A stretch of 64,000 nt of DNA from Candidatus Thorarchaeota archaeon (GCA_011364905.1 RDNZ01000001.1:96001-160000); one strand, 5' to 3'. Shown: positions 5,657 to 42,690, counted from the stretch's first letter. Notes: generated from the sequence alone by a model not told the origin. A program made the numbers and translations.

Positions 5657-5756
5657 TCAGCAATCAATGACTAGTCCACAAGTACATCATTCAGTTGGTT
5701 TTCTTTCAGATCAGTTGCAGAAATGTTAATCTTTTGGAGTTCTGACTGGTCAACTA

Positions 5757-8335: not shown

Positions 8336-8941
8336 TCATTGGTGCTTTCTCAGTCTTATTGAGTTCCAAGCTAGCAGTCCAACGAAAACCAGTGATCCAA
8401 AAACGGTATACCATTCAATCAGCGGGCCCCTTAGTGTCAGTGCAAATCCAAGACTAGAGAGGGTGACAGCAAGTCCATATATTCCAACGAGTCGGTTGAA
8501 CTTGGAATTCAAAAAGAGCGCAATAGTGATGATGATGAGCACAAAAAAGTTGAGCAAGAAGAAATCGCCAGAAGCGGTCATATGTGGCTCTCCCGTGTTT
8601 TCAGAAAAAACCCCAATAGCCATTAGAGCAAATCCTGAAGCTACACCTAGCACTTGGCCAATCACCATGATTGCTTTCTGAATGTTACTTTCAGTATACC
8701 AGTCCTTCAGACTGAGAAAGAAAGGTACAAGGGTAATGCCTGTTAAGATACAGCCAATATTGTAGAAGTAGCCTCCGAAGGGACTGTGATTGAGGTTCCC
8801 CAAACGACTCAGGTAGTTGGTAATAGGACCATAAGGCTCTGGGTAGAAAGCCCATGAAACAAGAGTGAACACACAATAGAATAGAATGACCAAGAATCCA
8901 CTGATTGTGGTCAATGGATAGTTTCGAATATTAAAACCCAT
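8336..8941 (-). CDS. DUF998-like integral membrane protein
   Basis: Five to six TM helices with NYLSRLG, GVFSE..H and EW motifs. Confidence 0.7.
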   Translation of the reverse strand: MGFNIRNYPLTTISGFLVILFYCVFTLVSWAFYPEPYGPITNYLSRLGNLNHSPFGGYFYNIGCILTGITLVPFFLSLKDWYTESNIQKAIMVIGQVLGVASGFALMAIGVFSENTGEPHMTASGDFFLLNFFVLIIITIALFLNSKFNRLVGIYGLAVTLSSLGFALTLRGPLIEWYTVFGSLVFVGLLAWNSIRLRKHQ

Positions 8942-8981
8942 GGTATTCTAGGTGCAATTCGTCCTAATTAAACTACATTAC

Positions 8982-10241: not shown

Positions 10242-10393
10242 ATCCGAATTTTTCAGCGTGAATTCTCACTTAAATAAGACATGTAAGGTTTGGTGGGTTG
10301 TGTTAATGTGTATTTGACTAATCAATACGAAGAGAAAGACGAATAGAGAATGCGTCGTAGATTAGTTGCTATTTTTGGTTTCCATACTCCTCC

Positions 10394-12034
10394 TTAATCC
10401 TTGAGAAGTTTCGGTACATACTTCCAAACAACTGCAACCAAGATAGCCACAATGATTGCTTGGCTCAAGAGGCTAGCAATTTGCATCCCTGTGAAGAGCA
10501 TCACTGCCCCATAACCTACAAGGGGAGCAATTCCAACAATCGCCCCCACAGCGGCAGAAACAAGACCCATAGCTTGATCTGATGCCACATTGACAGCGAC
10601 AGCTCGGCCACCACCTCGCATACGAAAGACAGTTCCACCTACTGCCATACCAACTATGTATCCGCAGGGTATCTGAATAATAGGTATCAATAGGATGAGT
10701 GGAGTTATTGGGTTGTTGATTAGAACAATGAGGTCAATTGCGACCATGCTCAAAACATAAGGCACGAGTACGATTGAAGTCTTGCTTTGAAGGACGAGCC
10801 TTGAGCTTATCGGAAGTCCTTCATGTATGGACGCTCCTTGTGTGTCGAACATAAGAATTGATACAAGAGAGATTCCTCCGAATAGATTGGCATATTCAAC
10901 CGCAGCGAGCGTTGTTATGCTGCGTAGAAATCCTGCATCATCTTTCCAATTTTGGATCATTGGAAACAGCATTATGACAAGGAAAATTGGAATAGCAAAA
11001 ACAAATGCGGATCCGATGTTCCTGGTTGCCAATTTTAGGTCTTTTCGAATCATAGCTCTAAGTGGTGTAGTGGAATCGATTGCTATCTCCCGCTCTGAGA
11101 TGATTTGACTTGTAGAAACTCCGCTAATCGTTACTTCTCTAAGTGATTTTCCACTCCTACGATATGCCACGATCGCAATGAGGGTATAGAATCCTGTACC
11201 TATTGTTGAAGTAAGAAGAACACTTGAGGATGTGGGAAAGGCAATTGATGCTGCAAGAAAACCATATGAAAATGGAAAAATCAAAGATAGAATAGAGAAG
11301 GCGGTCTCACCCCAAACAGATGAGAGCTGAGTTATGAATAATATCATGCCAGGAAGATAACTGCTGAGACCATAGACACTGATCATACCGATGACAATAC
11401 CAAGAGAAGCAGCAATCCTAACAAAAGCGGAGCTTCTCGATTCATCTGATGAATGAGATTTCTTGTGGAACCATTTTGATATCCCAATCAATGCCCCTAT
11501 GGCAATCGAAACAGTGCTTGCGCATGCAACAAGAGCAATTAGTGAAACCAAGGGTCCGAATATAATGAGGCTGCCAATTGGAAAAATGGTCAGAGATAGA
11601 ATCACAGGCGCAAAGAAGACCCGAGCGAAAGTCATGAATGAAAGTTGTTCGAGGTCAGCCTTGCTAAGAGGCAAGGTGGCAGGTAGACTCATTACGCCTG
11701 ATGAGATCAATCCAGTTGTTGAGGTGAGATTAAGAAAGAATACAACTACAAAACTGAGTGCCAAATACACAGCAAAACCTACAGCTAAGCGAGGTCCCGG
11801 ATTTCCAAGAGAAACATCGAATGCAGACGCGGCAAGAGCAATTATAGCTATCATCGAAAGTATCATCGATGTCATGATATAGCTAATACGGCTCGATGAC
11901 TTGATTGACCGGGAAATCTTTTCAGGATTCTCCTTAATACGAGCAAGGTTAGATGGATTCATCTCTAAAAAAGCTTGAAATCGGGACTCTCGTGCAACCA
12001 CCCCAGCAAGTTTCCAACACTCTGAGAATTTCAT
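10394..12034 (-). CDS. ABC-2-type exporter permease (archaeal, 12-14 TM)
   Basis: Highly hydrophobic, TLPLS and RKDLKLATR motifs, ATGA overlap with the upstream ATPase. Confidence 0.8.
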   Translation of the reverse strand: MKFSECWKLAGVVARESRFQAFLEMNPSNLARIKENPEKISRSIKSSSRISYIMTSMILSMIAIIALAASAFDVSLGNPGPRLAVGFAVYLALSFVVVFFLNLTSTTGLISSGVMSLPATLPLSKADLEQLSFMTFARVFFAPVILSLTIFPIGSLIIFGPLVSLIALVACASTVSIAIGALIGISKWFHKKSHSSDESRSSAFVRIAASLGIVIGMISVYGLSSYLPGMILFITQLSSVWGETAFSILSLIFPFSYGFLAASIAFPTSSSVLLTSTIGTGFYTLIAIVAYRRSGKSLREVTISGVSTSQIISEREIAIDSTTPLRAMIRKDLKLATRNIGSAFVFAIPIFLVIMLFPMIQNWKDDAGFLRSITTLAAVEYANLFGGISLVSILMFDTQGASIHEGLPISSRLVLQSKTSIVLVPYVLSMVAIDLIVLINNPITPLILLIPIIQIPCGYIVGMAVGGTVFRMRGGGRAVAVNVASDQAMGLVSAAVGAIVGIAPLVGYGAVMLFTGMQIASLLSQAIIVAILVAVVWKYVPKLLKD

Positions 12035-12810
12035 TCAGCGAGTGCCTCCCTAATGACAGACACTCCTTCTTCAACTTCTTCCTCTTGTTCTGTTAGTTTT
12101 AGGAAAAGACTCTCAAGTGTTGCACCATCTTTGTGAGCTCTTGAACGAAGCTCGTCTAAAGTTCCTTCTGCAATCAAAAGACCCTCATCAATTATTCCAA
12201 CACGGTCACAGAGACCTTGGGCCACCTCCATAACATGCGTGCTGAGTAAGACTGATCCCCCATTTTCCGCATGAATCCTGACGATATCCTTCATGATTTT
12301 GGCTGAACGAACGTCCAATCCCGAGAAGGGTTCATCGAGTATCAGTAGTTTAGGTGCATGCAGTAAGGCGGCAATAAGCATCGTTTTCTGCTTGTTTCCC
12401 TGTGAAAGCGTCACAATCATCTTGTCATAGTGCTGGCTAAAATCAAGGGCCTTGGCGAACTCCTTTGCTCTCTTACTGGCTTTATCCGAAGGTAGTTGCC
12501 GTATTGAGGCAACAAAATCAAAAAGCTCACGAGGTGTTAATGAGTCGTACAACTGCTGCTCCTCAGGTACATATCCAACCATGCGTTTTACCTCTACAGG
12601 ATTATCCGTAGAGTCGATTCCAAACACGGTAGCAAGGCCAGAATCGGGATCCAGGAGACCCATGATCATTTTGATCGTTGTAGACTTTCCAGCCCCATTA
12701 GGTCCAAGCAGACCATAAATCTCGCCCTCGCGAACATCAAGTGAGAGCTCACTGACTGCAATCAGATCCCCAAAGGTCTTCACTAGATGCTCCAATTTAA
12801 CCGCAGACAT
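12031..12810 (-). CDS. ABC transporter ATP-binding protein
   Basis: GPNGAGKST, LSQGNKQK signature, LILDEP, H-loop. Confidence 0.95.
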   Translation of the reverse strand: MSAVKLEHLVKTFGDLIAVSELSLDVREGEIYGLLGPNGAGKSTTIKMIMGLLDPDSGLATVFGIDSTDNPVEVKRMVGYVPEEQQLYDSLTPRELFDFVASIRQLPSDKASKRAKEFAKALDFSQHYDKMIVTLSQGNKQKTMLIAALLHAPKLLILDEPFSGLDVRSAKIMKDIVRIHAENGGSVLLSTHVMEVAQGLCDRVGIIDEGLLIAEGTLDELRSRAHKDGATLESLFLKLTEQEEEVEEGVSVIREALAE

Positions 12811-12857
12811 TTTTTTCTTCAAACTCCATTCTTATGCTAAAGAGACTCTCAGATGCG

Positions 12858-12876
12858 TATTCTCTTCGGGAGAATA
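12858..12876. promoter_or_regulatory. 7-5-7 inverted repeat next to the TATA box of the ABC exporter operon
   Basis: TATTCTC-TTCGG-GAGAATA adjacent to ATATATAA. Confidence 0.4.
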
Positions 12877-12909
12877 TATAATGTTTAATAACTACGCGAG
12901 AAATCATAA

Positions 12910-13362
12910 TCAAAGGCCCTCCAATTCGTCTTGCTCGTAGCTATCGCCTCTTAGTTTCACTCTCCTTTTGACAAAGGTCCAGTAGCTGTAGAATACAATC
13001 CATCCAATTGACGGGATTGCTGCAAGGAGAAAGAACGCAGGCGCAGCAAAAAAGAAGTAGATGGTAATCAAACTCAGCATAAGTACATTGATCACCCAAG
13101 CTCTTCGTTGCCAACCGTAATTTGATACGACAGCCACTGCACGAAGAGCAGCAAAGCCTCTCGCATTCAAAGTGTAAAGCCCGTCCTTGTCGGTGGTCAC
13201 AACGGCTTGCATCTTCTTGAGATGAAAATCTAGGAGACCGTTACTTTTGATTCTCAAGGTCCGTTTCAGATCTGCAAACCTGAGAGGCTTATTTGCTAGT
13301 TCTTTCAAGATAGCGATTCTCATTGGATGCGAGATTGCTTCGAATACTTCATCCGAGGTCAT
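12910..13362 (-). CDS. ArsR-like winged-helix regulator with two C-terminal TM helices
   Basis: FEAISHPMRIAILK..L...LRFADLK...LDFHLKK followed by two hydrophobic helices. Confidence 0.85.
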   Translation of the reverse strand: MTSDEVFEAISHPMRIAILKELANKPLRFADLKRTLRIKSNGLLDFHLKKMQAVVTTDKDGLYTLNARGFAALRAVAVVSNYGWQRRAWVINVLMLSLITIYFFFAAPAFFLLAAIPSIGWIVFYSYWTFVKRRVKLRGDSYEQDELEGL

Positions 13363-13406
13363 TTTTCTTCACTCAAAACATGGGCATGATTTGATATAAT
13401 CCTACG

Positions 13407-13430
13407 GTCATTGACTGCCCAGTCAATGAC
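13407..13430. promoter_or_regulatory. Perfect 11-2-11 palindrome, putative operator
   Basis: GTCATTGACTG-CC-CAGTCAATGAC, just upstream of the TATA box (GATATAAT) of the 13362 regulator. Confidence 0.7.
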
Positions 13431-13687
13431 TGTTGACTATCTATTTGAGGACAATTATCTCATTTTCACAGGTTTTTAGATAATAGTGTGTTTGTCAGGA
13501 TGTTTCTATTGAAACCTGATGATGTATGTACCCTTCACTCACGGGTCGGGACCACTTTCTTATATCGCGAGAAACCTCAAGCTGACATCAGGCCGTACTT
13601 TCCCTTAATGCTGACCGACGGCATCTGGTTATCAGAAATGTTGACATACAAATTAAATACTGGAGGAGATTCCGAGCATTGGGAGAT

Positions 13688-14028
13688 GTGTTGGCAATAC
13701 GTTCTGCTGTACTCATGCTTGTCTTAATGTCGGTCGTGATTGTACCTTCCATTCATACTGCTGAAACTTTTGACTTCAGTGATTCTGAGTGGGGGTTTGA
13801 GGAGGGGAGCAAGTTCAATTACACTCTAAGAATGAGGATGCCACTCTTTGACATTGACATTTTGGAAAAAGTCACAGTAATAATAGAGTACGCGCCATCG
13901 CCACTCACAACAATTTCTTCTACCAGCTGCGAGCTGTAGGAGAAACCATCCTTACCATTACTGGCATAGCATACTTCGCACTTGCATTGCGAACAGGACA
14001 GGTAACTTGGTCCAAGGCGTCAGAGTAG
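13688..14028 (+). pseudogene. Internally deleted, frameshifted surface-protein remnant
   Basis: Signal peptide plus EWGFEEGSKFNY N-terminus stops at 13939. The -1 frame encodes a TM anchor (TILTITGIAYFALALR...SKASE*) ending at 14028. Confidence 0.55.
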
Positions 14029-14076
14029 TTCGAGGGAGATTGACTCGTCAAAATGTGACGAGAGATGGAAAATAAG

Positions 14077-14103
14077 AAGAGAAGAGAATGATTCTCTTCT
14101 CTT
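14077..14103 (-). terminator. 13-1-13 inverted repeat downstream of the 14120 gene
   Basis: AAGAGAAGAGAAT-G-ATTCTCTTCTCTT between convergent genes. Confidence 0.55.
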
Positions 14104-14119
14104 TCAGTTATTCTGAAAA

Positions 14120-15178
14120 CTACCTTCGCTTTACGACGAAGGCGATGCCAATAACGACGACAGCTCCACCAATGGCAACGGGCAGAAGATTGTCAGCTAG
14201 GAATGTAGGAAGTTGGAATCCTCCAGTAAGAAGAAGGTTCTCAAAACCAATCTTGGGATCATGGATGATTTCGTTGCCCTGTGGATAGTTCAAGTAAATG
14301 TCCTGTTCAGTAGCTGATATCTCATGAATGCTGGAGTTAACTTGATGAGATACACCGTCAATCATAGCTGTGTCTTTCCAAGAGAAGAATCCATTCACAT
14401 CAGTCACAGAAACGTCGACTGCAGACTCACCAACCGCTCGACCATCCTCTTCATCTTCTGTTACGCCATCATAGGAGGCTTCCGATTCTGAACTGAATTC
14501 GACTTTCAAAGCCAGCTGAGATGCGCTCTCAGTGAAGTTGAAACCACGAATCGCGACATCAATCTTCACTTGAGTAGGTGCGATTAATGATCCGTTGATA
14601 TCAGTGAATGCTCCGGCTGCGTAGATCTTGGCTTCAAACACACCATCAGTTGTCACTACATCGAAAACGTGAACTGGTCCATCAGCTGTGTTCTCCACCG
14701 TGTAGGCGATAGGATTGAAGCTGTTGAGCAGCAAGGTTTGGACTCCTGTATCAACATTGTCATCGTAGACACCATTGCCGTTCACATCGAGATATTCAAT
14801 GAGCTCTTTGAAATTCACCTCGAACTCGCGTCCGGTTTCATTGACGCCAGTTTCTGTTTCGAAGCCCACTTTGAATTGAACGCCATCGGATCCTACAACG
14901 ACTTCGATCTTGAAGGAATCTTCAGTGCCTCCGGATTCGAGTTGGGACTCTATCTCCGCGGAGAATGCCATGACATTGACATTGACCTCTCGATTGTTGG
15001 AATCATCCCCACTGCCATCATCACCTGCAGTGTGGGTGTTATCATCAGTAGTTGTGTTGTCATCCACCTGAGTGTTTTCATCTTCTGTGGTGGTCTGAGC
15101 TTTGACCCTCACAGCTGTTGTTAGCACTAAAATGAGCAACATCACAAGGATAGCTTTGTTGCGAGTAGGGTGTTTCAT
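14120..15178 (-). CDS. Acidic secreted, membrane-anchored beta-rich surface protein
   Basis: Signal peptide, D/T-rich low-complexity linker, VKIDV and IIHDPKIG motifs, C-terminal TM plus KRR; TATATAA ~30 nt upstream. Confidence 0.8.
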   Translation of the reverse strand: MKHPTRNKAILVMLLILVLTTAVRVKAQTTTEDENTQVDDNTTTDDNTHTAGDDGSGDDSNNREVNVNVMAFSAEIESQLESGGTEDSFKIEVVVGSDGVQFKVGFETETGVNETGREFEVNFKELIEYLDVNGNGVYDDNVDTGVQTLLLNSFNPIAYTVENTADGPVHVFDVVTTDGVFEAKIYAAGAFTDINGSLIAPTQVKIDVAIRGFNFTESASQLALKVEFSSESEASYDGVTEDEEDGRAVGESAVDVSVTDVNGFFSWKDTAMIDGVSHQVNSSIHEISATEQDIYLNYPQGNEIIHDPKIGFENLLLTGGFQLPTFLADNLLPVAIGGAVVVIGIAFVVKRR

Positions 15179-25674: not shown

Positions 25675-26661
25675 ATGAATGGAAATCGAAAGATCCTTGC
25701 AGGAATTGTCGCAACGATAGTAGTTGTGGTTCTTGTCGTTGTTAGTATGAATCAAATACCTCCGCCACAGAATGCGAACCTTACGGACTTCCCCGACTTC
25801 TACACAAAGAATGAAGACTATTACATTACGAGAATCGATGGTGTGCCAAATGTCAATCGGGACACGTATCGACTTGAAATAACTGGCCTTGTTGATAATC
25901 CTCGTTCTTTCACTCTCGAAGAGTTGCAGGCTTTGAATCTAACCGATTTACCTCTCACCATAGAGTGTATTGGTAACACCAAAAATGGAAAACTGGTGTC
26001 CACTGCTATTTGGAGGGGATTTAATGTCTATGATCTGTTGGATTCATTAGGAATTTCAGGAAGCGCAACGGGAGTCAAGTACACTGCTGCTGATGGGTAT
26101 TATGCATCACATACTATGAACCAGCTGCAAAACAACGGTGTTCTTGGAGCACTGTATATGAACGGTGTAGAGCTACCTCCAGTTCAGGGATTTCCATTGC
26201 GAATTCTTAACCCGGGGTACTATGGGATTAAACAGCCGGCATGGGTTATTGGGATAGAGGTAATTGATACGCCTCTGGAAGACTATTGGCAAGATCGCGG
26301 ATGGGACACGTCCCCACCCATAGATATTGATTCTAAGATTTTCTTTCCTACTAGCTACGTAAGAATCAATGTGAGCGAATCCCTCAGAATCGGTGGTTGT
26401 GCGTTTGGCGGGACTCGCGTTAAGCTAGTGGAATACACAACAGACGATGGAGCAACGTGGCATAATGCGCCTATAATTCAGCAAATCGACGCAGATAACG
26501 TGTGGGTATTTTGGGAGGTTTACGTGAGTTTTTCAACAGCGGGAAGCTACTCCTTTCAGACCAGAGCAACAGACATCAATGATAATCAACAGATTCAAGT
26601 AGACCCTGACCCGCTCGACGGAACCAGTAGCTGGCCACTTCTCATCATTGATGTGACTTAG
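25675..26661 (+). CDS. Sulfite-oxidase-family molybdoenzyme with N-terminal membrane anchor
   Basis: YRLEITGLVDNP, TIECIGN Mo-Cys, MNG..LP..QGFPLR...PGYYG.KQ..W, C-terminal Ig-like dimer domain. Confidence 0.9.
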   Translation: MNGNRKILAGIVATIVVVVLVVVSMNQIPPPQNANLTDFPDFYTKNEDYYITRIDGVPNVNRDTYRLEITGLVDNPRSFTLEELQALNLTDLPLTIECIGNTKNGKLVSTAIWRGFNVYDLLDSLGISGSATGVKYTAADGYYASHTMNQLQNNGVLGALYMNGVELPPVQGFPLRILNPGYYGIKQPAWVIGIEVIDTPLEDYWQDRGWDTSPPIDIDSKIFFPTSYVRINVSESLRIGGCAFGGTRVKLVEYTTDDGATWHNAPIIQQIDADNVWVFWEVYVSFSTAGSYSFQTRATDINDNQQIQVDPDPLDGTSSWPLLIIDVT

Positions 26662-31788: not shown

Positions 31789-31818
31789 TGGGCAAAAAAG
31801 AGTCACGGGAAGGAGTCC

Positions 31819-32166
31819 TCAGACCTCCTTCCGTGCGTATATGTACTCTCTTTTATCCTCCCCAACAATCTCAACCATGTTCCACTTCATAAGAGCGAGG
31901 AGATTCTCAAGAATGTAGTCCTTCTCCATCATCGTTGCTTTTGCAATCTCTGTGATTGTCGCAGGTCCATCCTTTAACTCTCCAAGAATATAGCTTCGGT
32001 CAATCTCCTCTCGGACTGTCTGCTCCATTAGTTGTTTGAGTCTCTCAGGTGTTAGGTCTCCGCGCTGAAGAAGAACATCACCTTTGCCAATAAGCCATCT
32101 CAAGCGCTCGTTTCCAAAAGCTTCAGCAGCTGCATCCACTTTCTCCATGTTGGCTGTTTCTTTCAC
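31819..32166 (-). CDS. Small helical/wHTH protein closing the hdr operon
   Basis: ERLRWLIGK helix plus wHTH (GPATITEIAKAT...ILENLLAL..WNMVE); GTGA overlap with hdrA. Confidence 0.75.
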   Translation of the reverse strand: MKETANMEKVDAAAEAFGNERLRWLIGKGDVLLQRGDLTPERLKQLMEQTVREEIDRSYILGELKDGPATITEIAKATMMEKDYILENLLALMKWNMVEIVGEDKREYIYARKEV

Positions 32167-33914
32167 TGTTCGCCACCTCCTTTCAGAGTCTGAGGTGTCA
32201 GATATGCCTCGACCATGGTCATGATCTGTTCGTCAGTGGAATGTCGCATTGTGATTGCATTACTTGGACATGCAGCTGCACACGTCCCACAGCCTTTGCA
32301 CTTTGCCTCGGTGACAAATGCTATTGGTGGATCGTTTGTTGTGAGCATTCCTATGGCTCCGAATGGGCAAGCTGTCACACAGGTATGACATGACGAGCAA
32401 AGCGTTTCATCAACCCACGAAACCGTCGACTCAATCTCCACGTTCTTTTGAGCCATCAGCGAGGTTGCCTTTGCAGCTGCTCCACTGGCTTGTGTCGCGC
32501 TATCAGTAGCATCCTTTGCTGCTTGAGCAGCTCCTGCAATCATGATACCCGCAGTATGTGTTGTGAGAGGTGCAAGCTTGATGTGCTCCTCATTGAAGAA
32601 ACCGTCTCCCGAGCGAGTCAGACTGAACATCTTGCTGACCTCATCCGTTGTAGGAGGAGGAACCATAGCTGTAGTGAGTATTAGGAGGTCTGGCTGAAAC
32701 TCACAATAGGTCTCTGACAGGACATCTTTCCACTTGACGACAATATCGTCTCCTTTAAGGCAGACCTTTGGTTTTTTCGTATGTGCAAACTTCGAGAACA
32801 TAACGTGTTTCTGTCTTGCTTCTCGATGGATCTCCTCATGCCCCCTTCCGAATGTTCTAATGTCATCATAGAGAACCATTACTTCATCTGAGATATCCTT
32901 GATTTCAGAGGCTGCTTTCGTCATTGCGGTGCAGCAATAACGTGAACAATGCTCATGGCCCTTGTTGCCCTCTTCTCGAGAACCAACACACCCGACGAAC
33001 ATGACTTGTTTTGGTGGCTTGCCATCACTAATCCGAAGCACTGAGCCATTCTTCTTCATTTTTTCATAATCTGCGAGGGTGATGATGTTTGGATTATTTC
33101 CGTATTCGTAGTATCCTTCTGGCTCGAATGGTTCAAACCCTGTTGCGACAATGACTGTCCCAACTGTTCGTTTGACTGTCTTGCTAGTCTTCAAGTTCTT
33201 GATTTCAACTTCAAAGTCCCCAATATGGCCGTCAAAATCAACGACAACGGAGTCCGTCAACAACTCAACATCTTCAATTGCTCGTGCGGCAATGAGCATG
33301 CGGTCAATCACATCCTCAGCTTTCTCATTGTTGGGATACATCGTTGAGAGATATCGAAGATGCCCTCCGAGCTCCGACTCCTTTTCAACAAGAGTCACTT
33401 TGAATCCACGGGATCCAATGTCCACGACCGCCCTAAGTCCAGTGACACCACCTCCCACAACAAGAGTATGCGGTGTGACTTCAACTGTTTTCACTTCAAG
33501 TGGCTCAAGAAGTGCTGCTCGCGCTGCTGCCATACGAACGAGATCATTAGCCTTTGCTGTTGCTTTTTCTGGTTCTAGAGCATGACACCAACTGCAGTGT
33601 TCCCTAAGGTTCACCTGCTCGAAAAGATACCTGTTGAGTCCAGCCTCCTCTACAACTCGTCGGAATGTGGGCTCATGCATTCGCGGCGAGCAGCTAGCAA
33701 CCACAACCCGATTCAGATTGTTAACATGAATCATGTCTTTGATTAACTGTTGACCAGAATCGCTACACATGAACATGAAGTCAGTTGCATACTCAACATG
33801 GGGATAGTATTGAGCGTTCCGAGCAACCTGTTCCACATCTATTGTTCCAGCTATATTGTGTCCACAGTGACAGACAAACACACCAATCCTTGGTTCATCT
33901 ACCTGTTCCATCAC
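32163..33914 (-). CDS. hdrA: HdrA-like flavoprotein lacking the inserted ferredoxin
   Basis: RIGVFVCHCG.NI, VVASCSPR.HE, NLREHCSW, GGGVTG, CVGSR...HCSRYCC, C-terminal 2x CxxCxxCxxxCP. Confidence 0.9.
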   Translation of the reverse strand: MMEQVDEPRIGVFVCHCGHNIAGTIDVEQVARNAQYYPHVEYATDFMFMCSDSGQQLIKDMIHVNNLNRVVVASCSPRMHEPTFRRVVEEAGLNRYLFEQVNLREHCSWCHALEPEKATAKANDLVRMAAARAALLEPLEVKTVEVTPHTLVVGGGVTGLRAVVDIGSRGFKVTLVEKESELGGHLRYLSTMYPNNEKAEDVIDRMLIAARAIEDVELLTDSVVVDFDGHIGDFEVEIKNLKTSKTVKRTVGTVIVATGFEPFEPEGYYEYGNNPNIITLADYEKMKKNGSVLRISDGKPPKQVMFVGCVGSREEGNKGHEHCSRYCCTAMTKAASEIKDISDEVMVLYDDIRTFGRGHEEIHREARQKHVMFSKFAHTKKPKVCLKGDDIVVKWKDVLSETYCEFQPDLLILTTAMVPPPTTDEVSKMFSLTRSGDGFFNEEHIKLAPLTTHTAGIMIAGAAQAAKDATDSATQASGAAAKATSLMAQKNVEIESTVSWVDETLCSSCHTCVTACPFGAIGMLTTNDPPIAFVTEAKCKGCGTCAAACPSNAITMRHSTDEQIMTMVEAYLTPQTLKGGGEQ

Positions 33915-35251
33915 TGTTCACCTCCTTGCGCAAGAGTGATACTAGCCCGCATTGCAGCTGCGCTCCCGGCTGCAACGGAGTCCGGAATGTCCTTTGCAGA
34001 CTCGGCGCAACCTGCGACATAGACACCTGGAACTGCAGTATCTACAGGATTACTCGCGGGGTATTGGATTGGAATGAACCCATCCACACTGACCTCTAGT
34101 CCCACATAGTCAGCAAGTTCCTTCAGGCCTTTCGGAGGAAGTATGCCCGGACAGAGGACAAGTAGTTCATGTTCCTGTTTTAGGAACTCGCCGGTCTCAG
34201 TGTTTTCGGCCCAGATTTTGACGTTCTTGGTCTTCGAATCCTCAGAAACCTCACCAACGCGCCCTCGGATGAACTTGATTCCGAAGCGCTCCTTGGCCAT
34301 CGTATAGAACTCTTCGAATCCCTTTCCATATGCTCTGATGTCTGCATAGTAGACTGTCACATTCTTGACAATATCGTGCTGAAGTTCTTTGGACATGACT
34401 GCGTTTTTGATCCCATACATACAACATACACGACTGCAGTACGGTACGCCTTTTTGCACATCACGAGCGCCTACGCACTGTATAAAGCCAATCGACTTCG
34501 GGATCTTTCCATCACTCAGACGCATCAGTTTACCCCCAGTTGGACCAGCAGCATTGATAATTCGTTCATACTCAAGAGCATTGATGACATTCTTGAACCG
34601 ACCATATCCTAACCTGTGGTATTGCGACACATCAAACAACTCATAGCCTGTTGCTATGACAATAGCGCCTGCAGGAATCTCAAGTTGCTCATCCTCCATA
34701 GAGAGGTCTATGGCATCCCTCTGACAGGATTTGACACAGAGTTCACACTTGATGCAATTATCCTTGTCAATCGTATACACCAGTGGTGTGTTTTGTGGGA
34801 ACCCTATGTAGATAGCCTTCCTGTATCCAAGATTCTGGTCAAACTCGTTTCTCACTTGGACAGGACAATGAGGTACGCAATCTCCACATCCCGAACATTT
34901 GTCTTCCAAGACTCTTCTGGCTTTCTTGAGAACCTGAACTCTGAAATTCCCTGCTTCACCTGAAATTCCCTTGATCTCGCTATAGGTCAATAGTTTGATG
35001 TTTGGATGCCGGGACACTTGGCTTAGTCTGGGAGTCAAGATGCAAGCACTGCAGTCCAGCGTGGGGAAGGTCTTGTCGAGCATTGCCATGACACCACCGA
35101 TTGATGGCGTTTTCTCCACCAGAACAACTTGATATCCCTGATCTGCAATGTCAAGAGCTGCCTGCATCCCTGCCACTCCGCCTCCGACGACAACTGCAGT
35201 TTCGGCGGGTCTCATTGAACCAAAGTCAACCTTTTCGTCTGCTATGGTCAC
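33911..35251 (-). CDS. hdrA: HdrA-like flavoprotein lacking the N-terminal and C-terminal domains
   Basis: GGGVAG, LDKTFPTLDCSACIL, inserted 2x[4Fe-4S], CVGARD..YCSRVCC, PKDIPD-like; ends before any C-terminal ferredoxin. Confidence 0.9.
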   Translation of the reverse strand: MTIADEKVDFGSMRPAETAVVVGGGVAGMQAALDIADQGYQVVLVEKTPSIGGVMAMLDKTFPTLDCSACILTPRLSQVSRHPNIKLLTYSEIKGISGEAGNFRVQVLKKARRVLEDKCSGCGDCVPHCPVQVRNEFDQNLGYRKAIYIGFPQNTPLVYTIDKDNCIKCELCVKSCQRDAIDLSMEDEQLEIPAGAIVIATGYELFDVSQYHRLGYGRFKNVINALEYERIINAAGPTGGKLMRLSDGKIPKSIGFIQCVGARDVQKGVPYCSRVCCMYGIKNAVMSKELQHDIVKNVTVYYADIRAYGKGFEEFYTMAKERFGIKFIRGRVGEVSEDSKTKNVKIWAENTETGEFLKQEHELLVLCPGILPPKGLKELADYVGLEVSVDGFIPIQYPASNPVDTAVPGVYVAGCAESAKDIPDSVAAGSAAAMRASITLAQGGEQ

Positions 35252-35679
35252 TTTCCAGCACCTCCTGCTTTCAGCGGACTAGGTCCCAATAGCCGGATAG
35301 ATTCCGTCATCTCGGTTATCCCCTCTGCCCATTGTTGTCCTTCTGAGGCACTTGCCCAGAGAAGCTTGAGCCTGTCTGGGTGCAGCCCCATAGTTTTCAT
35401 TGCCATTTGGAGGGCATCGAATCTGACCTGGGTTCGGTAGTTGCCGGTTGCGTAATGACAATCGCCAGGATGACACCCAGTGACCATCACTCCATCGGCA
35501 CCTCCTTTGAACGCTTCAATCACCATTACTGGGTCCACTCGCCCGGAACACATCAAGCGAATGACCTTTGCATTGGGAGGATGTTGTATTCGAGAGATGC
35601 CGGCTAGATCTGCCCCTCCATAGGAACACCAGTTGCAGGTAAACGCAACAATCTTCGGTTCGAATCTCTTTCGAGTCAC
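35248..35679 (-). CDS. mvhD: MvhD [2Fe-2S] subunit
   Basis: FEPKIVAFTCNWCSYGGAD, MCSGRVDP, GCHPGDCHY, WASASEG; GTG 35679 overlaps the upstream TGA. Confidence 0.95.
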   Translation of the reverse strand: MTRKRFEPKIVAFTCNWCSYGGADLAGISRIQHPPNAKVIRLMCSGRVDPVMVIEAFKGGADGVMVTGCHPGDCHYATGNYRTQVRFDALQMAMKTMGLHPDRLKLLWASASEGQQWAEGITEMTESIRLLGPSPLKAGGAGK

Positions 35680-38600
35680 GGTATCAACTCTCCTCTTACA
35701 GATGCCGCAGCTAAAATCTGCGGTATGATCTGTTGCTTGCGATAATGTCGCATATCGATAGCATTCTTTGGACATGCTGCCGCGCAGGTCCCACAGCCTT
35801 GACAAAGCTCGAACATTACCCGACGTTCCTCTCCAGTCCCGGTAATTGCAAAATATGGGCAAAGATCTGTACAAAGGTCACAGTCAAAGCATCGCTCTGT
35901 GTCTATCTCAGCATAGATCGGTTCCACATAGAAGACACCAGGTGCCATCAGGGCCTGAGCACCAGCAGCTGCACCTTTCCCATAGGCGACAGCCTTTGGA
36001 ATGTCCATGGGCCCAAGTACAGCTCCAGCCAAGAACACTCCATCCTGAAATGAGTCTACAGGACGCAGTTTCGGATGAGCTTCCATCAAGAACCCATATT
36101 CCCCAGTGGAAACCTTCAGCTTTCGGGCAAGCTCGGCTGTGTTATCATTTGGCAGCAAGGCAGTTGCAAGAACCACAAGGTCAGTGGTAGTTTCAAGACG
36201 CGCACCTGTGTATAGATCCTCTGCTAGAACAACAAGGGACTTGGTTTCAGGATCTTCCTCAATCTCAGAGGGACGACCTTTTACCACAACTACGCCCTTC
36301 TCCCTTGCCCGCCTGTAGAGACCTTCGTATCCAAGTCCATGAGTTCTGATATCCATGGCATACACAGTGACCTCTGTCTTTGGATACTTCTCTTTGATCT
36401 GAATAGCTTGCTTCAGTGAATTTTCGCAGCCAATATAGCAGCAATAGTCTTGGTTAAATCGTCGGTCTCTTGACCCAACGCACTGGACAAAAGCTACTCG
36501 TTTGGGAACCGTGTGATCCGAAGGACGATATGGCTTACCCTGAGTTGGACCTGCTGCGTTGGTCAGCCGTTCTAGCTGTGCGTTCGTAATGACATTTTCA
36601 AAAGTTCCATACCCAAATTCACGTGTTTCAATGGGATCATGGACCTTGAATCCTGTGGCTACTATGATGGTTCCTATGTTGAGCTCAACAATCTCATCTT
36701 GAAGCGAGTGGTCAACAGCCTCGAGTTTACAAGCCTCAACGCACTTCTCACATTCGCAGCATACACCACAGCTCAAGCAGCGTTCGGCTTCGGCAAGCGC
36801 TACAGCCTCTTTGAATCCAAGTTCAACCTCACCAAATGATGTAGTTCTCTTGGACTTGCTGAGAGTCCGCATAACTGGTGCATAACTCATCTTGATACTA
36901 CCATCAATCTCGATATTTTCGATGGGCTTCAGATATTCTTCGCGGCCTTCTAAAAGATCTTCATCCTTTAGATATCGATCAATAGATTTAGCAGCTTCTT
37001 TCCCTGCGGCTACAGCCTCGACAACAGTACCACCGCCGCCAAGAACTACAGCGCCTCCACCAAAAACACCTTTCATGTTTGTCTGAAGAGTGACTGGGTT
37101 AACTTCAAGTGAGCCCCACATTGTGGGTTCGAGCTGTGTTAGCAATGCATCAGCAGTCACCTCCTGACCTATTGCGATGATGACATTATCAACCGACATC
37201 TTGAATTCTGAATCCGGAATAGGAATTGGTCTTCTCCTACCGGTATCATCTGGTTTACCTAGTTTCATTCGTACACATTTCATTCCTGAAACTTGCTTAT
37301 TCTTCTCGATGACCTCCACAGGATTCGCTAGAAGGGCAATCTTGACTCCTTCTTCTTCTGCTGCATCTATCTCAGATGAAATTGCTGGCATTTCTTCTCT
37401 AGAACGGCGATAGACAATCGTGACTTTCTTTGCCCCTAACCGTCTAGCAGTGCGTGCAGCATCAATTGCTGCATTGCCTCCACCGATCACCGCAACGTTA
37501 CGACCAATCTCAACGGTTTTTCCGCTGTTCACCTTATCGAGGAAAGCGAGTGCGTGATGAACACCTTTGGCATTCTCGCCCTTGATATTCATCTTGCGAC
37601 TGCCAGGAGCCCCAGTTCCAACAAAGATGGCTTTAAAGCCTTGACTTCTTAGTTCCTCAATTGATTCTATTTTGGATCCTGTTTTGATTGTAACTCCAAG
37701 CTTCTTGATGATTCCAATCTCATCATCTAAAATGTCCCGGGGGAGCCGATATTCAGGGATACCATACCTAAGTAGACCTCCAGCTTTCTTTCTTGCTTCG
37801 AAGACTGTAACTGAGTATCCTTCTCTAACGAGATCATACGCGCAAGCAAGACCAGCAGGTCCAGCCCCAACGATAGCAATTGGTTTCTTAGCTTTCTTCT
37901 TATTGGGAACAATCGGATCGATTTTGATTTCACCAGCCTCTCTTTCATAGTCAGCTAAGAATCTGTGCAGGTTTCTGATACTTACGGATTCATCATATTT
38001 TCCACGCTCACATTCTAACTGACAAGGATTCGTACAGACTCTACCCAACGTACCAGCGAAAGGCGAGCTCTTTCGATAAATCTCAAGAGCCTCATCGAAA
38101 CGTTCCTCTTTAAGGAGGATAATGAATGCTTGAACATTCACATGCGCTGGGCAGGCGATCTTACAAGCAGAGGTGCCTCTCTTGTCAATCGTATACTTGT
38201 TAGGCACTGCCTGTGGAAATGGCCTGTAAGCCGCTCTACGTGTAGCAAGTCCGAATTCATAGTCGTTCTTTACACTAACAGGGCAGGCTTTTTCGCAGTC
38301 ACCACACCCATTGCATTTGTCATAATTGATGTAAGGCGACTTCTTTCTTACTTTCAAACGGAAGTTGCCGACGTATCCATCCACACTATCGAGCTCGCTA
38401 TAGGTCATGAGATTGATTTTTGGATGCTGACCAACCTTGGACATGATTGGTCCCAAAATGCAAATCGCACAATCATTTTGTGGGAAGACCTTGTCAAGCA
38501 GAGCCATTTGGCCCCCGATTGTTGGACGACTTTCAATAAGGTGAGTTTCAAATCCCGCATTAGCCAGATCTAGAGCTGCAGAAATGCCAGCTACTCCTCC

Positions 38601-39056
38601 ACCAATAACCGCAGCGCTTTGTATCACGTCGACCGCTTTTCTTTCTAAGGGCTCAAGGTACTTTACACGCTCAACCGCCATTGCGATGAGCTCCTCAGCC
38701 TTCATGGTTGCGAGGTCGTGATCATCCATGTGAACCCAACTTACATGTTCACGAAGATTTACCTGATCGTAGAGATAGCGGTTCAATCCAGCCTCTTCAA
38801 CACAGGCACGGAAAACTGGTTCATGTGTTCGGGGTGTGCAAGAAGCAACAACAACTCTGTTTAGGCTGTATTCCCGAATCGCCTGTTTGATATTCTCTTG
38901 TCCATCGTCAGAGCATGCAAACAGCAAATCTACTGCATAAGCAACATCTGGAAGATTCAATGCGTATTTTGCTACACGTTCGCAGTCTACTGTGCCTGCG
39001 ATGTTCAAACCACAGTGACATATGAACACGCCTACTCGCAATTCTGGTTCACTCAT
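35676..39056 (-). CDS. hdrA: Large HdrA with an embedded GltD/NfnB-like FAD/NAD(P)H module (HdrL-type)
   Basis: Complete HdrA motifs interrupted (~36770-38170) by ACKIACP...[42 protein letters not shown]. Confidence 0.92.
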
Positions 39057-39949
39057 CTACTACCACCTCCAACTATCTTGGCCACAATTTTGTCAGTCTT
39101 CACAGTATGCAAATCAAGACCAAGTTCTTCGGGAGAGTAACCAAACCCTAAAGCTAGAATTTGTGGGAAATGCAGGACGGGAATATCCAAATCATCCATG
39201 GCGAACTTTCGCTTGATGGTTCTCTGACCCATGTCATGCTGCAAATGACACAACGAACAGACTGTAACGATGCCATCCACTCCAGCATCCTGTGCATCCA
39301 CAAGTCGTTCATGAAGAATACGATCAGCGAGGTCATCCTGGACACCCCTCAAGAGTCCTCCACAGCATCGATGCCGACCGGTATACTGCACACTGTTCAC
39401 GCCAAACTGCTCAATGAGCTCATCTGCAAAGGTGGGTCGCTCAGAGTATTCGATGTTCAACAGCTCGTGAGGTTTAAGCATATGACATCCATATCTGAGA
39501 CCAATTGAGATGTTGCTCAGATCTCGCACGGACTTTTGCCTGATCTTGTCAGCTCCAATATCGGTGTACAGGAAGTCCACAATGTGCCTGGCTTCTACAG
39601 TGCCATCATAGTGCAGACCAACCGTCTTCAGGATTTCATTTACGCGTTCCCGCATATCCGGATAAGTTTCCAGTACGTGGTTCACGCGTTTATAGGAATG
39701 GAAACATCCGCTGCAAGGTGTAAGGAGATCCAAGCCCATCTCTTCGGCTTTGGCAAGATTCCTTGCAGCCATCGCGATTGAAGTGGTAAGATCAAGAGAT
39801 TGCATCCAGAAAGGAGCACAGCAAGTTTCGTTGGGAATGTCTATTGTTTCAATTCCCAGATGGTCTAGAACCTTTCTGGTGGCAGCCTCGTAGCCTATCA
39901 AAGATCGTCTTGTGGGAACCAAACAGCCCCAAGCTATTGCCTTCTTCAA
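39053..39949 (-). CDS. hdrB: HdrB-like CCG-domain subunit (copy 2)
   Basis: GC...CC...CxxC motif twice (ETCCAP..CSGC; YGCH..RCCGG..CSLC). Confidence 0.9.
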
Positions 39950-40503
39950 TCCGATTCCACCTCCTTCTTCTGGTTAGCTGCCAAGACCTCGTTAAGTCCG
40001 GCCGCTTTCATTATCCCTTGTAATTGCGTAATGTCAGGGTCGTGTAAGGGAGGTAAACCAAGTTGTTCACGCATCTTGTCTACTAAGCCGGTTCTTGCGC
40101 TCACGCGTCCATTCTGCCTTACCATTTCAGCCATCTTGACATAACCCTGTGCAGCGTGTCCCTCCTTGCTTGCCATATTGCGTAACACGGTAACAACATC
40201 CGTAAAGTTCACTTGTTGGACACATCGTTCTTCACAGGTAAAACAAGCCGCGCAAAGCCAAATCTGGTCGGTTGAGAGCACCTCATCCTTGAGTCCGAGC
40301 AATACATTGCCTAGGACTTTCCTGGGTCTGTAGTCTATTACCGCACCAACAGGACAGCCGCCACTACAAGCGCCACATTTCAAGCATCGAAGAAGACCCT
40401 CTCCGCCAACCATGTCAGCGACATTATATTTGAATGACGCCTTCACATCTTCGTCGCGAACAGGAAAATCGCCTCGATAGCTTCTCTTTTCAGTTTCTTC
40501 CAT
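39946..40503 (-). CDS. hdrC: HdrC 2x[4Fe-4S] subunit (copy 2)
   Basis: [29 protein letters not shown]. Confidence 0.92.
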
Positions 40504-41381
40504 TAGTACCTCACACCTGTTAATGATTCGAGTATACGACTAGGACTGATACGATTCATGTGCATCCCCAGCTCTTCGTCGAGGATGCCTAAAGATGGAC
40601 CAAGGAACTGCGGAAGCGTTATCACAGGCATTCTGGACTTTCCTAATCTGCCTCCAAGCTGAACCTGAGATAGCTGGATGTTGCAATAAGCGCAGGCTGT
40701 GACAATCCCCTCTGCACCCGCTTCTTTGATGCTCCTGATCTTCTCTATTCCCACCTTACTTGCTAGCTTGTCATCCATTGCAAGAAGAGGAGCACCGCAA
40801 CAACGAAACTTACCTTCGTATTTGACAGGCCATCCACCTGCAACTCGTATGATTGAATCGATGATCGTTGGAACCTTGCCACTGGTAGAATTCATGTCAT
40901 CGAAAGGTCTTGATACATGACAACCATAATGGGCCGCTAAACGGATATTTGTGTAGGGATTAGTTATCGCAGATTCAAGAGAGCTGAGAGTTAAATCCTG
41001 TTCAAAGACATCCAGAAGATGCTTTACTTCCACCTTTCTTGTATATTGAAGCCCATCTCTATCAAGCAAAGAGTTGACATCAGCGCGTGCTCGTTTCCTT
41101 CTATCAAGCAGCATTTTCACGTGCTTCAAGGATCCAGCACAAGCGCCACAGATGGCAAGGATGTCCTTACCTTCATTCTCTGCGAGTGCAAGAATCCTTC
41201 CCCCCAGAGCAAGGAAGGCATTCTCATTGAGAGATTCAATGTATTGTGCGCCGCAGCAGTTTGTGTTGTTTAGAGGGCTTATATTGATTCCAAGCTTTTC
41301 GAGGACAGCTATAGTTGCAGCCTCATATGCAGGAAGACGTACTGGAGTTACACAGCCTCTGAACAGTACGTACTCCTTCAT
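40503..41381 (-). CDS. hdrB: HdrB-like CCG-domain subunit (copy 1)
   Basis: YVLFRGC, NCCG, CGAC, HYGCH, RCCG, ACAYC; start moved to ATG 41381. Confidence 0.9.
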   Translation of the reverse strand: MKEYVLFRGCVTPVRLPAYEAATIAVLEKLGINISPLNNTNCCGAQYIESLNENAFLALGGRILALAENEGKDILAICGACAGSLKHVKMLLDRRKRARADVNSLLDRDGLQYTRKVEVKHLLDVFEQDLTLSSLESAITNPYTNIRLAAHYGCHVSRPFDDMNSTSGKVPTIIDSIIRVAGGWPVKYEGKFRCCGAPLLAMDDKLASKVGIEKIRSIKEAGAEGIVTACAYCNIQLSQVQLGGRLGKSRMPVITLPQFLGPSLGILDEELGMHMNRISPSRILESLTGVRY

Positions 41382-41385
41382 GCGA

Positions 41386-41877
41386 CTACCCATCCTCTTC
41401 AAAATACATCGATCTTACGTCCCTTGTGTATCGCTTATTGTGAGATAGTCTCGAGCTTAGACCTAGTTCCTTCCGTTCATCAGCAATGAAGTCAGAATAG
41501 GCGTCCTTCATGAGCCACCCATCGGAAAAGATCGCATCTGCTGCTTTTTGAAAAGAAGCCGGTATGATGTTTTCTCGGATTGCCAGACTACGTACAACTC
41601 TAAAAACGTCAGCAAGTCTCACACCGTATTGACAGGTGTCCTCACACTGATGACATGTCTTGCAGACCCATGGTTGCTCACTATGCAAGACTGGTTCCCG
41701 AGCTCCAACAAGAATCTTCTGCATAATCTGGCGTGGATTGTAATGAGTACCAGCTGCAACTGCACATCTTGCTGTACACATTCCACAAGCAACACAATTC
41801 TCCAGGAGTCTACCCTTTGCCAGGGTAGTCAATTCTTGAATGAAGCTTGAAGACGGAATGAGTCTAGTTCGTACCAT
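41386..41877 (-). CDS. hdrC: HdrC 2x[4Fe-4S] subunit (copy 1)
   Basis: CVACGMCTARC, NPR, WVCKTCHQCEDTC. Confidence 0.88.
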   Translation of the reverse strand: MVRTRLIPSSSFIQELTTLAKGRLLENCVACGMCTARCAVAAGTHYNPRQIMQKILVGAREPVLHSEQPWVCKTCHQCEDTCQYGVRLADVFRVVRSLAIRENIIPASFQKAADAIFSDGWLMKDAYSDFIADERKELGLSSRLSHNKRYTRDVRSMYFEEDG

Positions 41878-41975: not shown

Positions 41976-42011
41976 TTTTCAAGGTTCGATGATCCCAAAT
42001 TTTCAAGGTTC
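41976..42011. repeat. 12-bp direct repeat upstream of the hdr operon
   Basis: TTTTCAAGGTTC at 41976-41987 and 42000-42011 (24-nt period). Confidence 0.6.
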
Positions 42012-42690
42012 ACCGCCCTAGTCAATATACTCATATCTTGCATAAAGGGCCTATATGCTTCATTGTCGAAAACAGCGCATACACATTACAAGAAATGATT
42101 GGAATTGAAACTATCACAATTGAATTCTTACTATATAGGACAAGAAATAGGCATTTCATGATTACGAGCTCCAAGTCTTAACCATGAATCTATTCAATCA
42201 GAAAAGCTGGAATGATGTCACAAAACAAACATGGCTGTTTTACCTTAGTTTCAGGTTGAAACAAAACTATGCACACAATGGAGATGAAATGTGAACCATT
42301 ACCTCTCAAACATGCACATTACTAATCATTCAACTATATTATTTTTAGCTGATTTGATAAACTGACCTCTTAAGCTTTTTAGTAGCTATTACTACGTCAG
42401 CATTAATAAAAATAGTAAAAACGAAGCTTCCCAAATATCTCTAAAATGATGATTCATATCATTCAAATATTGGCTTGATTTGCATCATTTCATAACTATT
42501 TTGTGTCTATGTCCAAAAATCAACACAATAGAGAAAACGAGAAGGTTGTTTGCGGCCTACTTTTTCTTAGGAATTGGAACCCTAATTAGGAATTGAGGCA
42601 GTTGCTTTTTCGAAAAACATCATCTCGAAGCAAATTATGTATCTGATTAGACGTCAATGTGCGCTCTCGCCGCATAATAGAAAAATGGAT

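Follow-up and report, generated by a model that had tools for sequence, protein, structure and literature searches.

What kind of enzyme does an archaeon make from nine linked genes of the heterodisulfide reductase (Hdr) type, with no hydrogenase gene among them? The question is raised by a stretch of 64,000 nucleotides of Candidatus Thorarchaeota archaeon (GCA_011364905.1 RDNZ01000001.1:96001-160000), here called the window, which is contig C15:96001-160000 of a 3.08-Mb genome that is 81% complete. The host is an Asgard archaeon, in line with the archaeal origin given in an original prediction that was made from the DNA of the window alone. The operon in question, defined by its open reading frames and by Pfam and NCBIfam matches, occupies positions 41877-31819 of the minus strand (as do all of its genes described below) and reads hdrC1-hdrB1-hdrC2-hdrB2-hdrL-mvhD-hdrA'-hdrA''-wHTH, the last gene coding for a winged helix-turn-helix (wHTH) protein. 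With moderate confidence it is considered to encode a soluble system of the heterodisulfide reductase type that bifurcates or confurcates electrons by means of flavins, which would be one of the modular Hdr/Mvh clusters spread across Asgard archaea. Models of Asgard physiology and of syntrophy at the origin of eukaryotes rest on an “MvhADG-HdrABC” copied from methanogens, and the clusters of the Thorarchaeota family that go under this name appear to differ from it in their complementary HdrA halves, their NADPH module, their two HdrBC lineages and the winged-helix partner of MvhD. The operon also bears on the substrates of HdrBC modules in organisms other than methanogens and sulfate reducers and on how a single-circuit HdrA heterodimer bifurcates electrons, and it offers a cloneable target in public metagenome-assembled genomes (MAGs) such as AB_25.

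Layout and conservation of the operon

The operon is real and conserved, and its nine genes are tightly coupled in translation. Families were assigned with Pfam and NCBIfam profiles, the latter with their equivalog cut-offs. Six junctions overlap by 4 nt (TTGA once, ATGA once and GTGA four times), another overlaps by 1 nt and the last leaves a gap of 4 nt, and ribosome sites resembling GGAGGTG precede nearly all of the nine starts. The original prediction had described a translationally coupled nine-gene operon and was correct in every structural detail, from the coordinates of the reading frames to the overlaps and the gap; mvhAG, fdh and flx genes are absent from the nine, as it had also claimed.

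The nine-gene order was found in at least seven independent Thorarchaeota assemblies, AB_25 among them, and HdrL has orthologues (81-86% identity) on contigs from several Candidatus Thorarchaeota archaeon MAGs, including AB_25 (MEHG01000045) and SMTZ1-45 (LRSL01000102). A similar nine-gene design (hdrC-hdrB-hdrC-hdrB-hdrA::mvhD-hdrA'-hdrA''-mvhD-wHTH) occurs in another Asgard family. All nine genes are under purifying selection (dN, the nonsynonymous divergence, 0.06-0.36; dS, the synonymous one, saturated), with omega of 0.015-0.12 in those pairs for which it could be computed, saturation of the synonymous sites being the reason why only some pairs gave a value. The hdrC1 and hdrB1 genes evolve about twice as fast as hdrC2 and hdrB2, yet they are still under purifying selection. 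In the literature no paper was found on the Thorarchaeota operon or on an archaeal winged-helix partner of MvhD.

Three forms of HdrA

All three HdrA proteins have the features by which HdrA was defined here: a flavin adenine dinucleotide (FAD) domain of thioredoxin reductase (TrxR) fold, the four-cysteine cluster C386/C399/C403/C404 and the residues Glu356/Lys409 (numbering of PDB entry 5odc). Their cores also keep the motifs GGGxxG and CVG(S/A)R and the CC-type motif, and they score 470-700 bits against the methanogen HdrA chains 5odc_A and 8rvu_a. Outside the core they are not alike. HdrL (1126 aa, 35676..39056) is a complete HdrA: it keeps the four cysteines of the N-terminal domain, the FPxxDCxxC loop (its Cys196/199 correspond to Cys194/197 of 5odc), the TrxR cluster, the inserted ferredoxin with both of its clusters, the C-terminal 2x[4Fe-4S] ferredoxin and the EAHPKLRP motif, and no element of HdrA is missing. 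HdrA' (446 aa, 33911..35251) consists of the TrxR/FAD core with the inserted 2x[4Fe-4S] ferredoxin and the equivalent of Cys197 (Cys70, in a conserved Cys67/Cys70 loop); it lacks the N-terminal domain and the C-terminal ferredoxin and aligns with residues 135-568 of 5odc_A (506 bits). HdrA'' (583 aa, 32163..33914) has the N-terminal Fe-S domain, the TrxR/FAD core and the C-terminal ferredoxin, and lacks the inserted ferredoxin and the FPTxDCxxC loop, where K and D stand at both cysteine positions; it aligns with 8rvu_a in two pieces (3-239 and 244-573).

According to the alignment and the cysteine table, HdrA' and HdrA'' therefore complement each other with respect to the N-terminal domain, Cys197 and the two ferredoxins, inserted and C-terminal. 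The same genome carries natural fusions of the two, a single-chain A'-A''-MvhD at C6:31309-34794 and a single-chain A'-A'' at C6:26190-29312, in both of which A' precedes A'' as in the gene order of the window. These two observations favour the asymmetric complex that had been predicted. As far as sequences can tell, the domains of the canonical HdrA dimer are divided among the three forms: HdrA' contributes the Cys197 ligand and the ferredoxin-exit domain, and HdrA'' and HdrL contribute the N-terminal cluster domain and the C-terminal ferredoxin that faces MvhD.

HdrL is further distinguished by an NfnB/GltD-like NAD(P)H-FAD-2x[4Fe-4S] insert (residues ~295-760, 36777..38174; Pfam Fer4_20, Pyr_redox_2 and NAD_binding_8), which lies between the two cluster motifs of its inserted ferredoxin and so splits that domain. 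The insert has GAGPAG (FAD) and GGGNAA (NAD(P)H) motifs and five extra cysteines (298, 302, 341, 345 and 349), found solely in HdrL and in HdrLs, a protein of the sister operon described below. Profile matches follow the same architecture: NF040770 matches HdrL in two pieces (residues 7-305 and 758-1114), and so does 5odc_A (698 bits), PRK12771 covers residues 286-796 (530 bits versus a cut-off of 516), and residues ~295-699 match NfnI 5jca_L (301 bits) and NfnB 4ylf_B (290 bits). Thus the protein corresponds to HdrL as defined elsewhere, an HdrA with a GltD/NfnB FAD/NAD(P)H module carrying two [4Fe-4S] clusters and adjoining mvhD. Taken together, the HdrA forms have four FAD-type motifs and one nicotinamide (NAD(P)H) site, in agreement with the built-in NAD(P)H module and the up to four flavin sites that had been predicted.

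Searches also returned, from relatives, HdrL-like frames with one or two in-frame TGA codons (G023:C144:595-3486, G004:C10:6125-9025 and G005:C57:27944-29527). These codons may stand for selenocysteine, by analogy with HdrL/HdrA of D. autotrophicum.

Two HdrBC pairs and their substrate

The first pair is made of HdrC1 (163 aa, 41386..41877; Fer4_8/Fer4_17), whose ATG is preceded by a GGTGG ribosome site, and HdrB1 (292 aa with the ATG at 41381 as its start, 40503..41381; alternative starts at 41393 and 41402). HdrC1 has two CxxCxxCxxxC [4Fe-4S] motifs and reaches 87.9 bits with TIGR03290, under the equivalog cut-off of 160; HdrB1 has two Pfam CCG domains, scores 208 bits with TIGR03288 and aligns over its full length with methanogen HdrB 8rvu_b (174 bits). 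In the second pair, hdrC2 (185 aa, 39946..40503; TIGR03290 116 bits) overlaps hdrB1 by 1 nt and is followed by hdrB2 (298 aa, 39053..39949), with two CCG domains, 284.8 bits with TIGR03288, 249 bits against 8rvu_b and a dN about half that of hdrB1. HdrB2 is the more canonical and slower-evolving HdrB of the two.

In both pairs the subunits have what identifies them, two CCG domains with ten cysteines in HdrB and two [4Fe-4S] motifs in HdrC. The ten CCG cysteines are complete in each HdrB, both proteins align end to end with the methanogen subunit, and yet they share only 33% identity, which bears out the earlier statement that the copies are intact and divergent. In a quick IQ-TREE run with SH-aLRT support, HdrB1 grouped with the HdrB of Mvh-type operons and HdrB2 with the second HdrB of the other Asgard family with the nine-gene design; in relatives, hdrB2 always adjoins hdrL or its insert-less counterpart. 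The two pairs are old paralogous HdrBC lineages, both with the full set of ligands for the non-cubane clusters.

As for the substrate, the CoB-CoM (coenzyme B, coenzyme M) heterodisulfide reductase equivalog was rejected. McrA was found in none of the 28 genomes of the genus that were searched, and neither ComA nor DsrC was found in the 81%-complete genome; all Hdr subunits score under the NCBIfam equivalog cut-offs (208 and 285 versus 345 for TIGR03288, 88 and 116 versus 160 for TIGR03290, 838 versus 1100 for NF040770). Since McrA and ComA were not found, the non-CoM/CoB disulfide that had been predicted is plausible. Genes for TusA and DsrE-like carriers are present in the genome, far from the operon, and were dismissed as operon-linked sulfur carriers.

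MvhD and the winged-helix protein

The mvhD gene (143 aa, 35248..35679) begins with a GTG that overlaps the hdrL stop in a GTGA junction and encodes a [2Fe-2S] adaptor (Pfam FlpD 170 bits, NF045873 VhuD 128 bits). The ninth gene (31819..32166) encodes a protein of 115 aa that belongs to no family and is described here by its predicted fold and genomic context. Its AlphaFold2 model (14 homologues, pLDDT, the model's confidence score, 85.7) starts with two helices at the N-terminus, followed by a long helix and the wHTH, and Foldseek matched it solely with generic ArsR/MarR/Z-alpha folds (best E 2e-3). A profile search placed the family in 61 of 151 sampled Asgard genomes and in 22 of 26 genomes of the home family. 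All of the 14 loci that were fetched, from nine families, lie within an hdr/mvhD cluster, mostly directly 3' of mvhD; in Mvh-type operons the gene has mvhD on one side and mvhG on the other. Elsewhere among Asgard families the winged-helix module forms the C-terminal part of a 246-271 aa MvhD protein at six of the 14 loci (L063:8566-9303, L056:13689-14501, L058:8306-9070, L059:8266-9051, L064:8209-8982 and L065:556-1320), and a single locus encodes an HdrA''-MvhD-wHTH fusion of 812 aa (L065:9316-11751). The winged-helix profile also matches a protein of 754 aa whose gene belongs to an hdr cluster and lies directly downstream of hdrA::mvhD. In a large-database profile search, each of the best 120 of 336 matches was a hypothetical protein of close Thorarchaeota type; the look-alikes that the Atlas shows for Thermodesulfobacteriota and Bathyarchaeota are candidate relatives only.

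Because of this constant placement in hdr/mvhD clusters and the fusions to MvhD, the protein is probably a docking subunit and less likely a plain regulator. It could be argued that it is an ordinary winged-helix autoregulator and no subunit, as its fold matches ArsR/SmtB/MarR repressors, weak Pfam HTH_5/TrmB matches exist, and operons often end in a small regulator gene. Such a regulator would have a possible target in a conserved non-coding leader (41980..42060, minus strand), about 100-180 nt 5' of hdrC1, where a CATATAG box is followed by an imperfect inverted repeat (TTGACTAGGnCGGTG ... GGATCATCGAACCT). The leader is conserved in six orthologous loci and its motif is unique in the genome with up to one mismatch allowed, for which reason the regulator retains some weight. 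RNAalifold gave a weak hairpin (-7.4 kcal/mol) with two covarying pairs and an Rfam search of the leader gave no match; the leader could be an operator or a hairpin of the 5' untranslated region. However, the protein is acidic (isoelectric point ~4.9), as is its putative recognition helix, it belongs to every one of the 14 sampled hdr/mvhD clusters, where Mvh-type operons place it between mvhD and mvhG, and it occurs fused to MvhD and to HdrA''-MvhD. A precedent by analogy is BamF, an MvhD-like adaptor in which a winged-helix motif docks the input module (bioRxiv 10.64898/2026.04.10.717634). Autoregulation is thus regarded as unlikely.

The sister operon and the hydrogenase

The earlier description of the system as hydrogenase-free holds for the transcription unit in this genus and fails for the system. 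On the same contig and strand, 27 kb away, lies a paralogous Mvh-type operon, hdrLs-hdrC-hdrB-hdrA'(432 aa)-hdrA''(588 aa)-mvhD-short wHTH-mvhG-mvhA (positions 4878-15115, minus strand, of L011, which is C15:160001-176000). Its hdrLs (946 aa) encodes an A'-type core with the same NfnB insert as HdrL, and with neither an N-terminal domain nor a C-terminal ferredoxin. Of the genes that the original prediction had named for a genome check, mcr, com and dsrC were not found (as McrA, ComA and DsrC), and MvhA and MvhG are encoded on the very same contig. Relatives have the two operon types side by side or merged into a single transcription unit, which likewise speaks against a hydrogenase-free system. 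L043/L044 has the units hdrC2-hdrB2-A664-mvhD-hdrA'-wHTH, then hdrL, then hdrC1-hdrB1-hdrLs-hdrA''-mvhD-wHTH-mvhG-mvhA; in G041 an end of hdrA''-mvhD-wHTH-mvhG-mvhA is followed by hdrC1-hdrC2-hdrB2-hdrL-mvhD-hdrA'-wHTH; and in G071, of a sister genus, everything is a single contiguous unit, hdrC2-hdrB2-hdrL-mvhD-hdrA'-hdrA''-mvhD-wHTH-mvhG-mvhA. A close MvhA occurs in 11 of the 13 operon-bearing genomes of the genus. The exceptions are G024 (99% complete) and G008 (90% complete), where nothing matched MvhA at E <= 1e-60 and other [NiFe] large subunits are present.

The genome as a whole has seven MvhD matches, about 12 HdrA-like genes and eight HdrBC pairs. Among relatives there is a short variant of the operon, hdrC2-hdrB2-hdrL-mvhD-hdrA'-wHTH, and within the genus a third paralogous class, hdrC-hdrB-hdrA'(~430)-hdrA''(~651)-321-aa MvhD-containing protein-hdrL(~1134), at L021-L023 (G009, G023 and G024). 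The orthologous operon of G024 (MAG HM6_B34; L016/L032, 1-3066) begins at hdrC2, and hdrC1 and hdrB1 were not found in the 3 kb upstream. At least one lineage can therefore do with a single HdrBC pair, C1B1 being dispensable there. Through many such rearrangements and duplications, in Thorarchaeota and in other Asgard families, a set of HdrC, HdrB, an A'-type HdrA, an N-domain-type HdrA, MvhD and the wHTH protein persists.

Other donors were considered and rejected. The one molybdopterin enzyme in the vicinity of the operon (5757-8138, plus strand, ~24 kb away), only weakly Fdh-like, scores 287 bits versus an Fdh-alpha cut-off of 666 and has no FdhB neighbour, the single FrhB/FdhB-type gene being on another contig. 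A link to MetFV was dropped as well, MetF lying on contig C57 with no hdr genes nearby.

Comparison with known systems

With the methanogen MvhAGD-HdrABC complex (5odc, 8rvu, 7bkb, 9sfi) the operon shares HdrA, HdrB, HdrC and MvhD, whose alignments span the full domains and keep every cluster ligand, including the Glu and Lys positions of the bifurcating FAD. It differs in having three non-identical HdrAs in place of a homodimer, two HdrBC pairs and an NfnB-like insert, and in a host where McrA and ComA were not found. Nor are mvhA and mvhG encoded together with its mvhD, as they are in that complex; MvhAG, with an MvhD of their own, belong to the paralogous operon.

HdrL was named in D. autotrophicum, which has HdrL1-3 (PMC2702500), and an HdrABC/HdrL-MvhD cluster without hydrogenase, Sfum_0819-0824, is expressed in S. 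fumaroxidans (PMC5947623). These clusters of sulfate reducers resemble the present operon in the HdrA-GltD NAD(P)H fusion followed by MvhD, in the accompanying HdrABC and in the absence of a hydrogenase. Unlike it, they come from bacteria and have an additional FeS protein, one HdrBC and, next to HdrL, only one HdrA of the ordinary kind; DsrC, not found here, is the presumed substrate there, and no winged-helix gene has been reported for them.

A further likeness is offered by anaerobic methanotrophic (ANME) archaea, for which Chadwick et al. (2022, PMC9012536) described tandem HdrA5/6 and 12/13, fused HdrA3/4 and NfnB-inserted HdrA9-11, and suggested that the chains pair as heterodimers, the N-terminal cluster of one being completed by Cys197 of its partner. 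HdrA' and HdrA'' show the same complementarity at the sequence level, an N-terminal domain without Cys197 facing a Cys197 without the N-terminal domain, and the ~500-aa NfnB-like insert of ANME-1 HdrA9-11 lies at the same place, within the inserted ferredoxin domain. The difference is that both features here share one operon with two HdrBC pairs and a winged-helix protein, in an Asgard archaeon that does not metabolise methane.

The class II benzoyl-CoA reductase BamDEF is comparable in its asymmetric pair of HdrA-like cores and in the association of an MvhD-type adaptor with a winged-helix element. By cryo-electron microscopy, BamE is a fused HdrA dimer with one bifurcating and one structural FAD (bioRxiv 10.64898/2026.04.10.717634). 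The single bifurcating FAD and the wHTH docking are findings made on BamDEF and would be predictions for the present operon; moreover, Bam has BamE as one fused chain and BamD as an HdrD-like fusion, with a HydBC-like NADH/Fd (ferredoxin) module as input and a tungsten enzyme as output. Sequence and profile searches found no BamF-like chain in PDB.

Three further assignments were set aside. The sulfur-oxidising sHdr operon (hdrC1B1A-hyp-hdrC2B2), which goes with lipoate-binding protein partners (no search was made here for LbpA), also has two different HdrBC pairs, but its sHdrA is a short single-cluster flavoprotein (~350 aa), MvhD and an NfnB module are missing from it, and the HdrA forms reach 121-133 bits with the sHdrA structure 6tjr versus 470-700 with methanogen HdrA. 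QmoABC, characterised by a membrane subunit QmoC (an HdrC-HdrE fusion) and by linkage to aprAB, does not fit either, as the HdrC proteins of the operon are both soluble and, at 163 and 185 aa, short, and the NF038018 qmoC profile matches just the N-terminal ferredoxin part (54-60 bits versus a cut-off of 300). For FlxABCD-HdrABC, no FlxABC genes were found in or beside the operon, where the FlxD/MvhD homologue is the only common part.

In consequence, the design cannot be called new in kind: HdrL-MvhD without hydrogenase, NfnB-inserted HdrA and complementary tandem HdrAs have already been published (PMC2702500, PMC5947623, PMC9012536). What is new is the Asgard-wide winged-helix family in hdr/mvhD clusters, fused to MvhD in several lineages.

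Proposed mechanism and alternatives

In the bifurcating or confurcating system favoured here, HdrA' would form asymmetric heterodimers with HdrA'', with HdrL or with both, each having a single working bifurcation circuit. NADPH would enter or leave at the insert of HdrL, low-potential electrons would reach ferredoxin by way of the inserted ferredoxin domain, and high-potential electrons would travel via HdrC to HdrB and reduce one or two disulfides other than CoM-S-S-CoB. MvhD and the winged-helix docking piece would wire the HdrA core to its input module, which may be HdrL itself or MvhAG of the sister operon acting in trans. Overall, the complex would catalyse a reaction of the form 2 NADPH + Fd(ox) + RSSR' <-> 2 NADP+ + Fd(red) + RSH + R'SH, and the system would balance NADPH, ferredoxin and, by way of the sister operon, H2. 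It is favoured because of the family and cofactor assignments, because the complementary HdrA pattern is identical to that of the ANME tandem HdrAs and of NfnB-inserted HdrA9-11 (PMC9012536), because single chains of A'-A''(-MvhD) exist naturally in the same genome, because the six-part set recurs in Thorarchaeota and other Asgard archaea, because all nine genes are under purifying selection and tightly coupled in translation, because wHTH-MvhD fusions have a structural precedent in BamF/BamE, and because a hydrogenase-less HdrABC/HdrL-MvhD is expressed in S. fumaroxidans (PMC5947623).

Several points weigh against it. The function of Asgard Hdr proteins is deduced from genes, and with two N-domain-type HdrAs to one of the A' type, pairing and stoichiometry can at most be predicted. 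The sequence does not tell which FAD would bifurcate, because all three cores keep the Glu356/Lys409 equivalents. The preference for NADPH over NADH is our assumption, made solely on a YRRS-type motif. No candidate substrate is linked to the operon. Finally, the full nine-gene set is not obligatory, since variants without hdrC1B1 exist: one of them also lacks hdrA'', another retains it, and in a third the contig stops short of its place.

The same genes could instead make two co-transcribed enzymes, an NADPH-dependent HdrL2-(HdrC2B2)2 and an asymmetric HdrA'A''-MvhD-HdrC1B1 that would be the counterpart of the Mvh-linked enzyme. HdrL is complete with its own Cys196/199, so that a homodimer is possible, hdrC2B2 stays beside hdrL or the insert-less counterpart, and the closest grouping of hdrB1 is with the HdrB gene of the Mvh-linked operon, where A'' is present too. 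The minimal variants without C1B1 and A'' fit this division too, but they still pair A' with L, an argument for joint work of the two; furthermore, this genus has seen at least three duplications of the six-part set as a whole, and mvhD of the window stands between hdrL and hdrA' and not next to C1B1. Two enzymes are considered rather doubtful. It is more improbable still that the complex depends on H2, with MvhAG of the sister operon docking on MvhD of the window and the NfnB-like module serving as the output for NADP+ reduction. That would make the complex an H2:NADP+/ferredoxin/disulfide oxidoreductase, or the reverse of one, evolving H2. An MvhD kept in an operon without hydrogenase would be accounted for, as would the nearby mvhD-wHTH-mvhG-mvhA, into which the orthologous operon of G071 runs directly, the adjacency of the operon types in G041 and L043 and the frequent presence of close MvhA; Asgard MvhADG-HdrABC is, besides, usually read as an H2-evolving confurcating enzyme (PMC7015854). 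Nevertheless, G024 and G008 carry the operon with no such MvhA match, the sister operon has its own MvhD, just 172 bits from that of the window, and MvhD adaptors elsewhere serve partners that are not hydrogenases (Fdh, MetFV, Bam).

A broader proposal, to which we give little credence at present, is that Asgard Hdr/Mvh systems constitute a distinct bifurcating class with interchangeable half-HdrAs and the winged-helix subunit as obligate docking partner of MvhD. If it were true, A'-type partners would pair with A'', HdrL or HdrA::MvhD, the winged-helix subunit would select the input module (MvhAG, NfnB insert or ferredoxin protein), the operon of the window would yield a three-HdrA particle with two active sites, and NADPH would reduce two different thiol/disulfide or protein-persulfide substrates.

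Surroundings of the operon

A T6 run read from the sequence at 31795..31800 (minus strand), ~19 nt past the last stop, is likely an archaeal terminator. The operon is flanked by unrelated genes, a beta-lactamase-like gene, ArsR and an aminotransferase on one side and a tetratricopeptide repeat (TPR) protein on the other. Two more redox genes of the window, both on the plus strand and unlinked to the operon, encode a pyridine-nucleotide disulfide oxidoreductase of the dihydrolipoyl-dehydrogenase type (1112-2614; 596 bits versus a cut-off of 592) and a sulfite-oxidase-type Mo enzyme (25675-26661).

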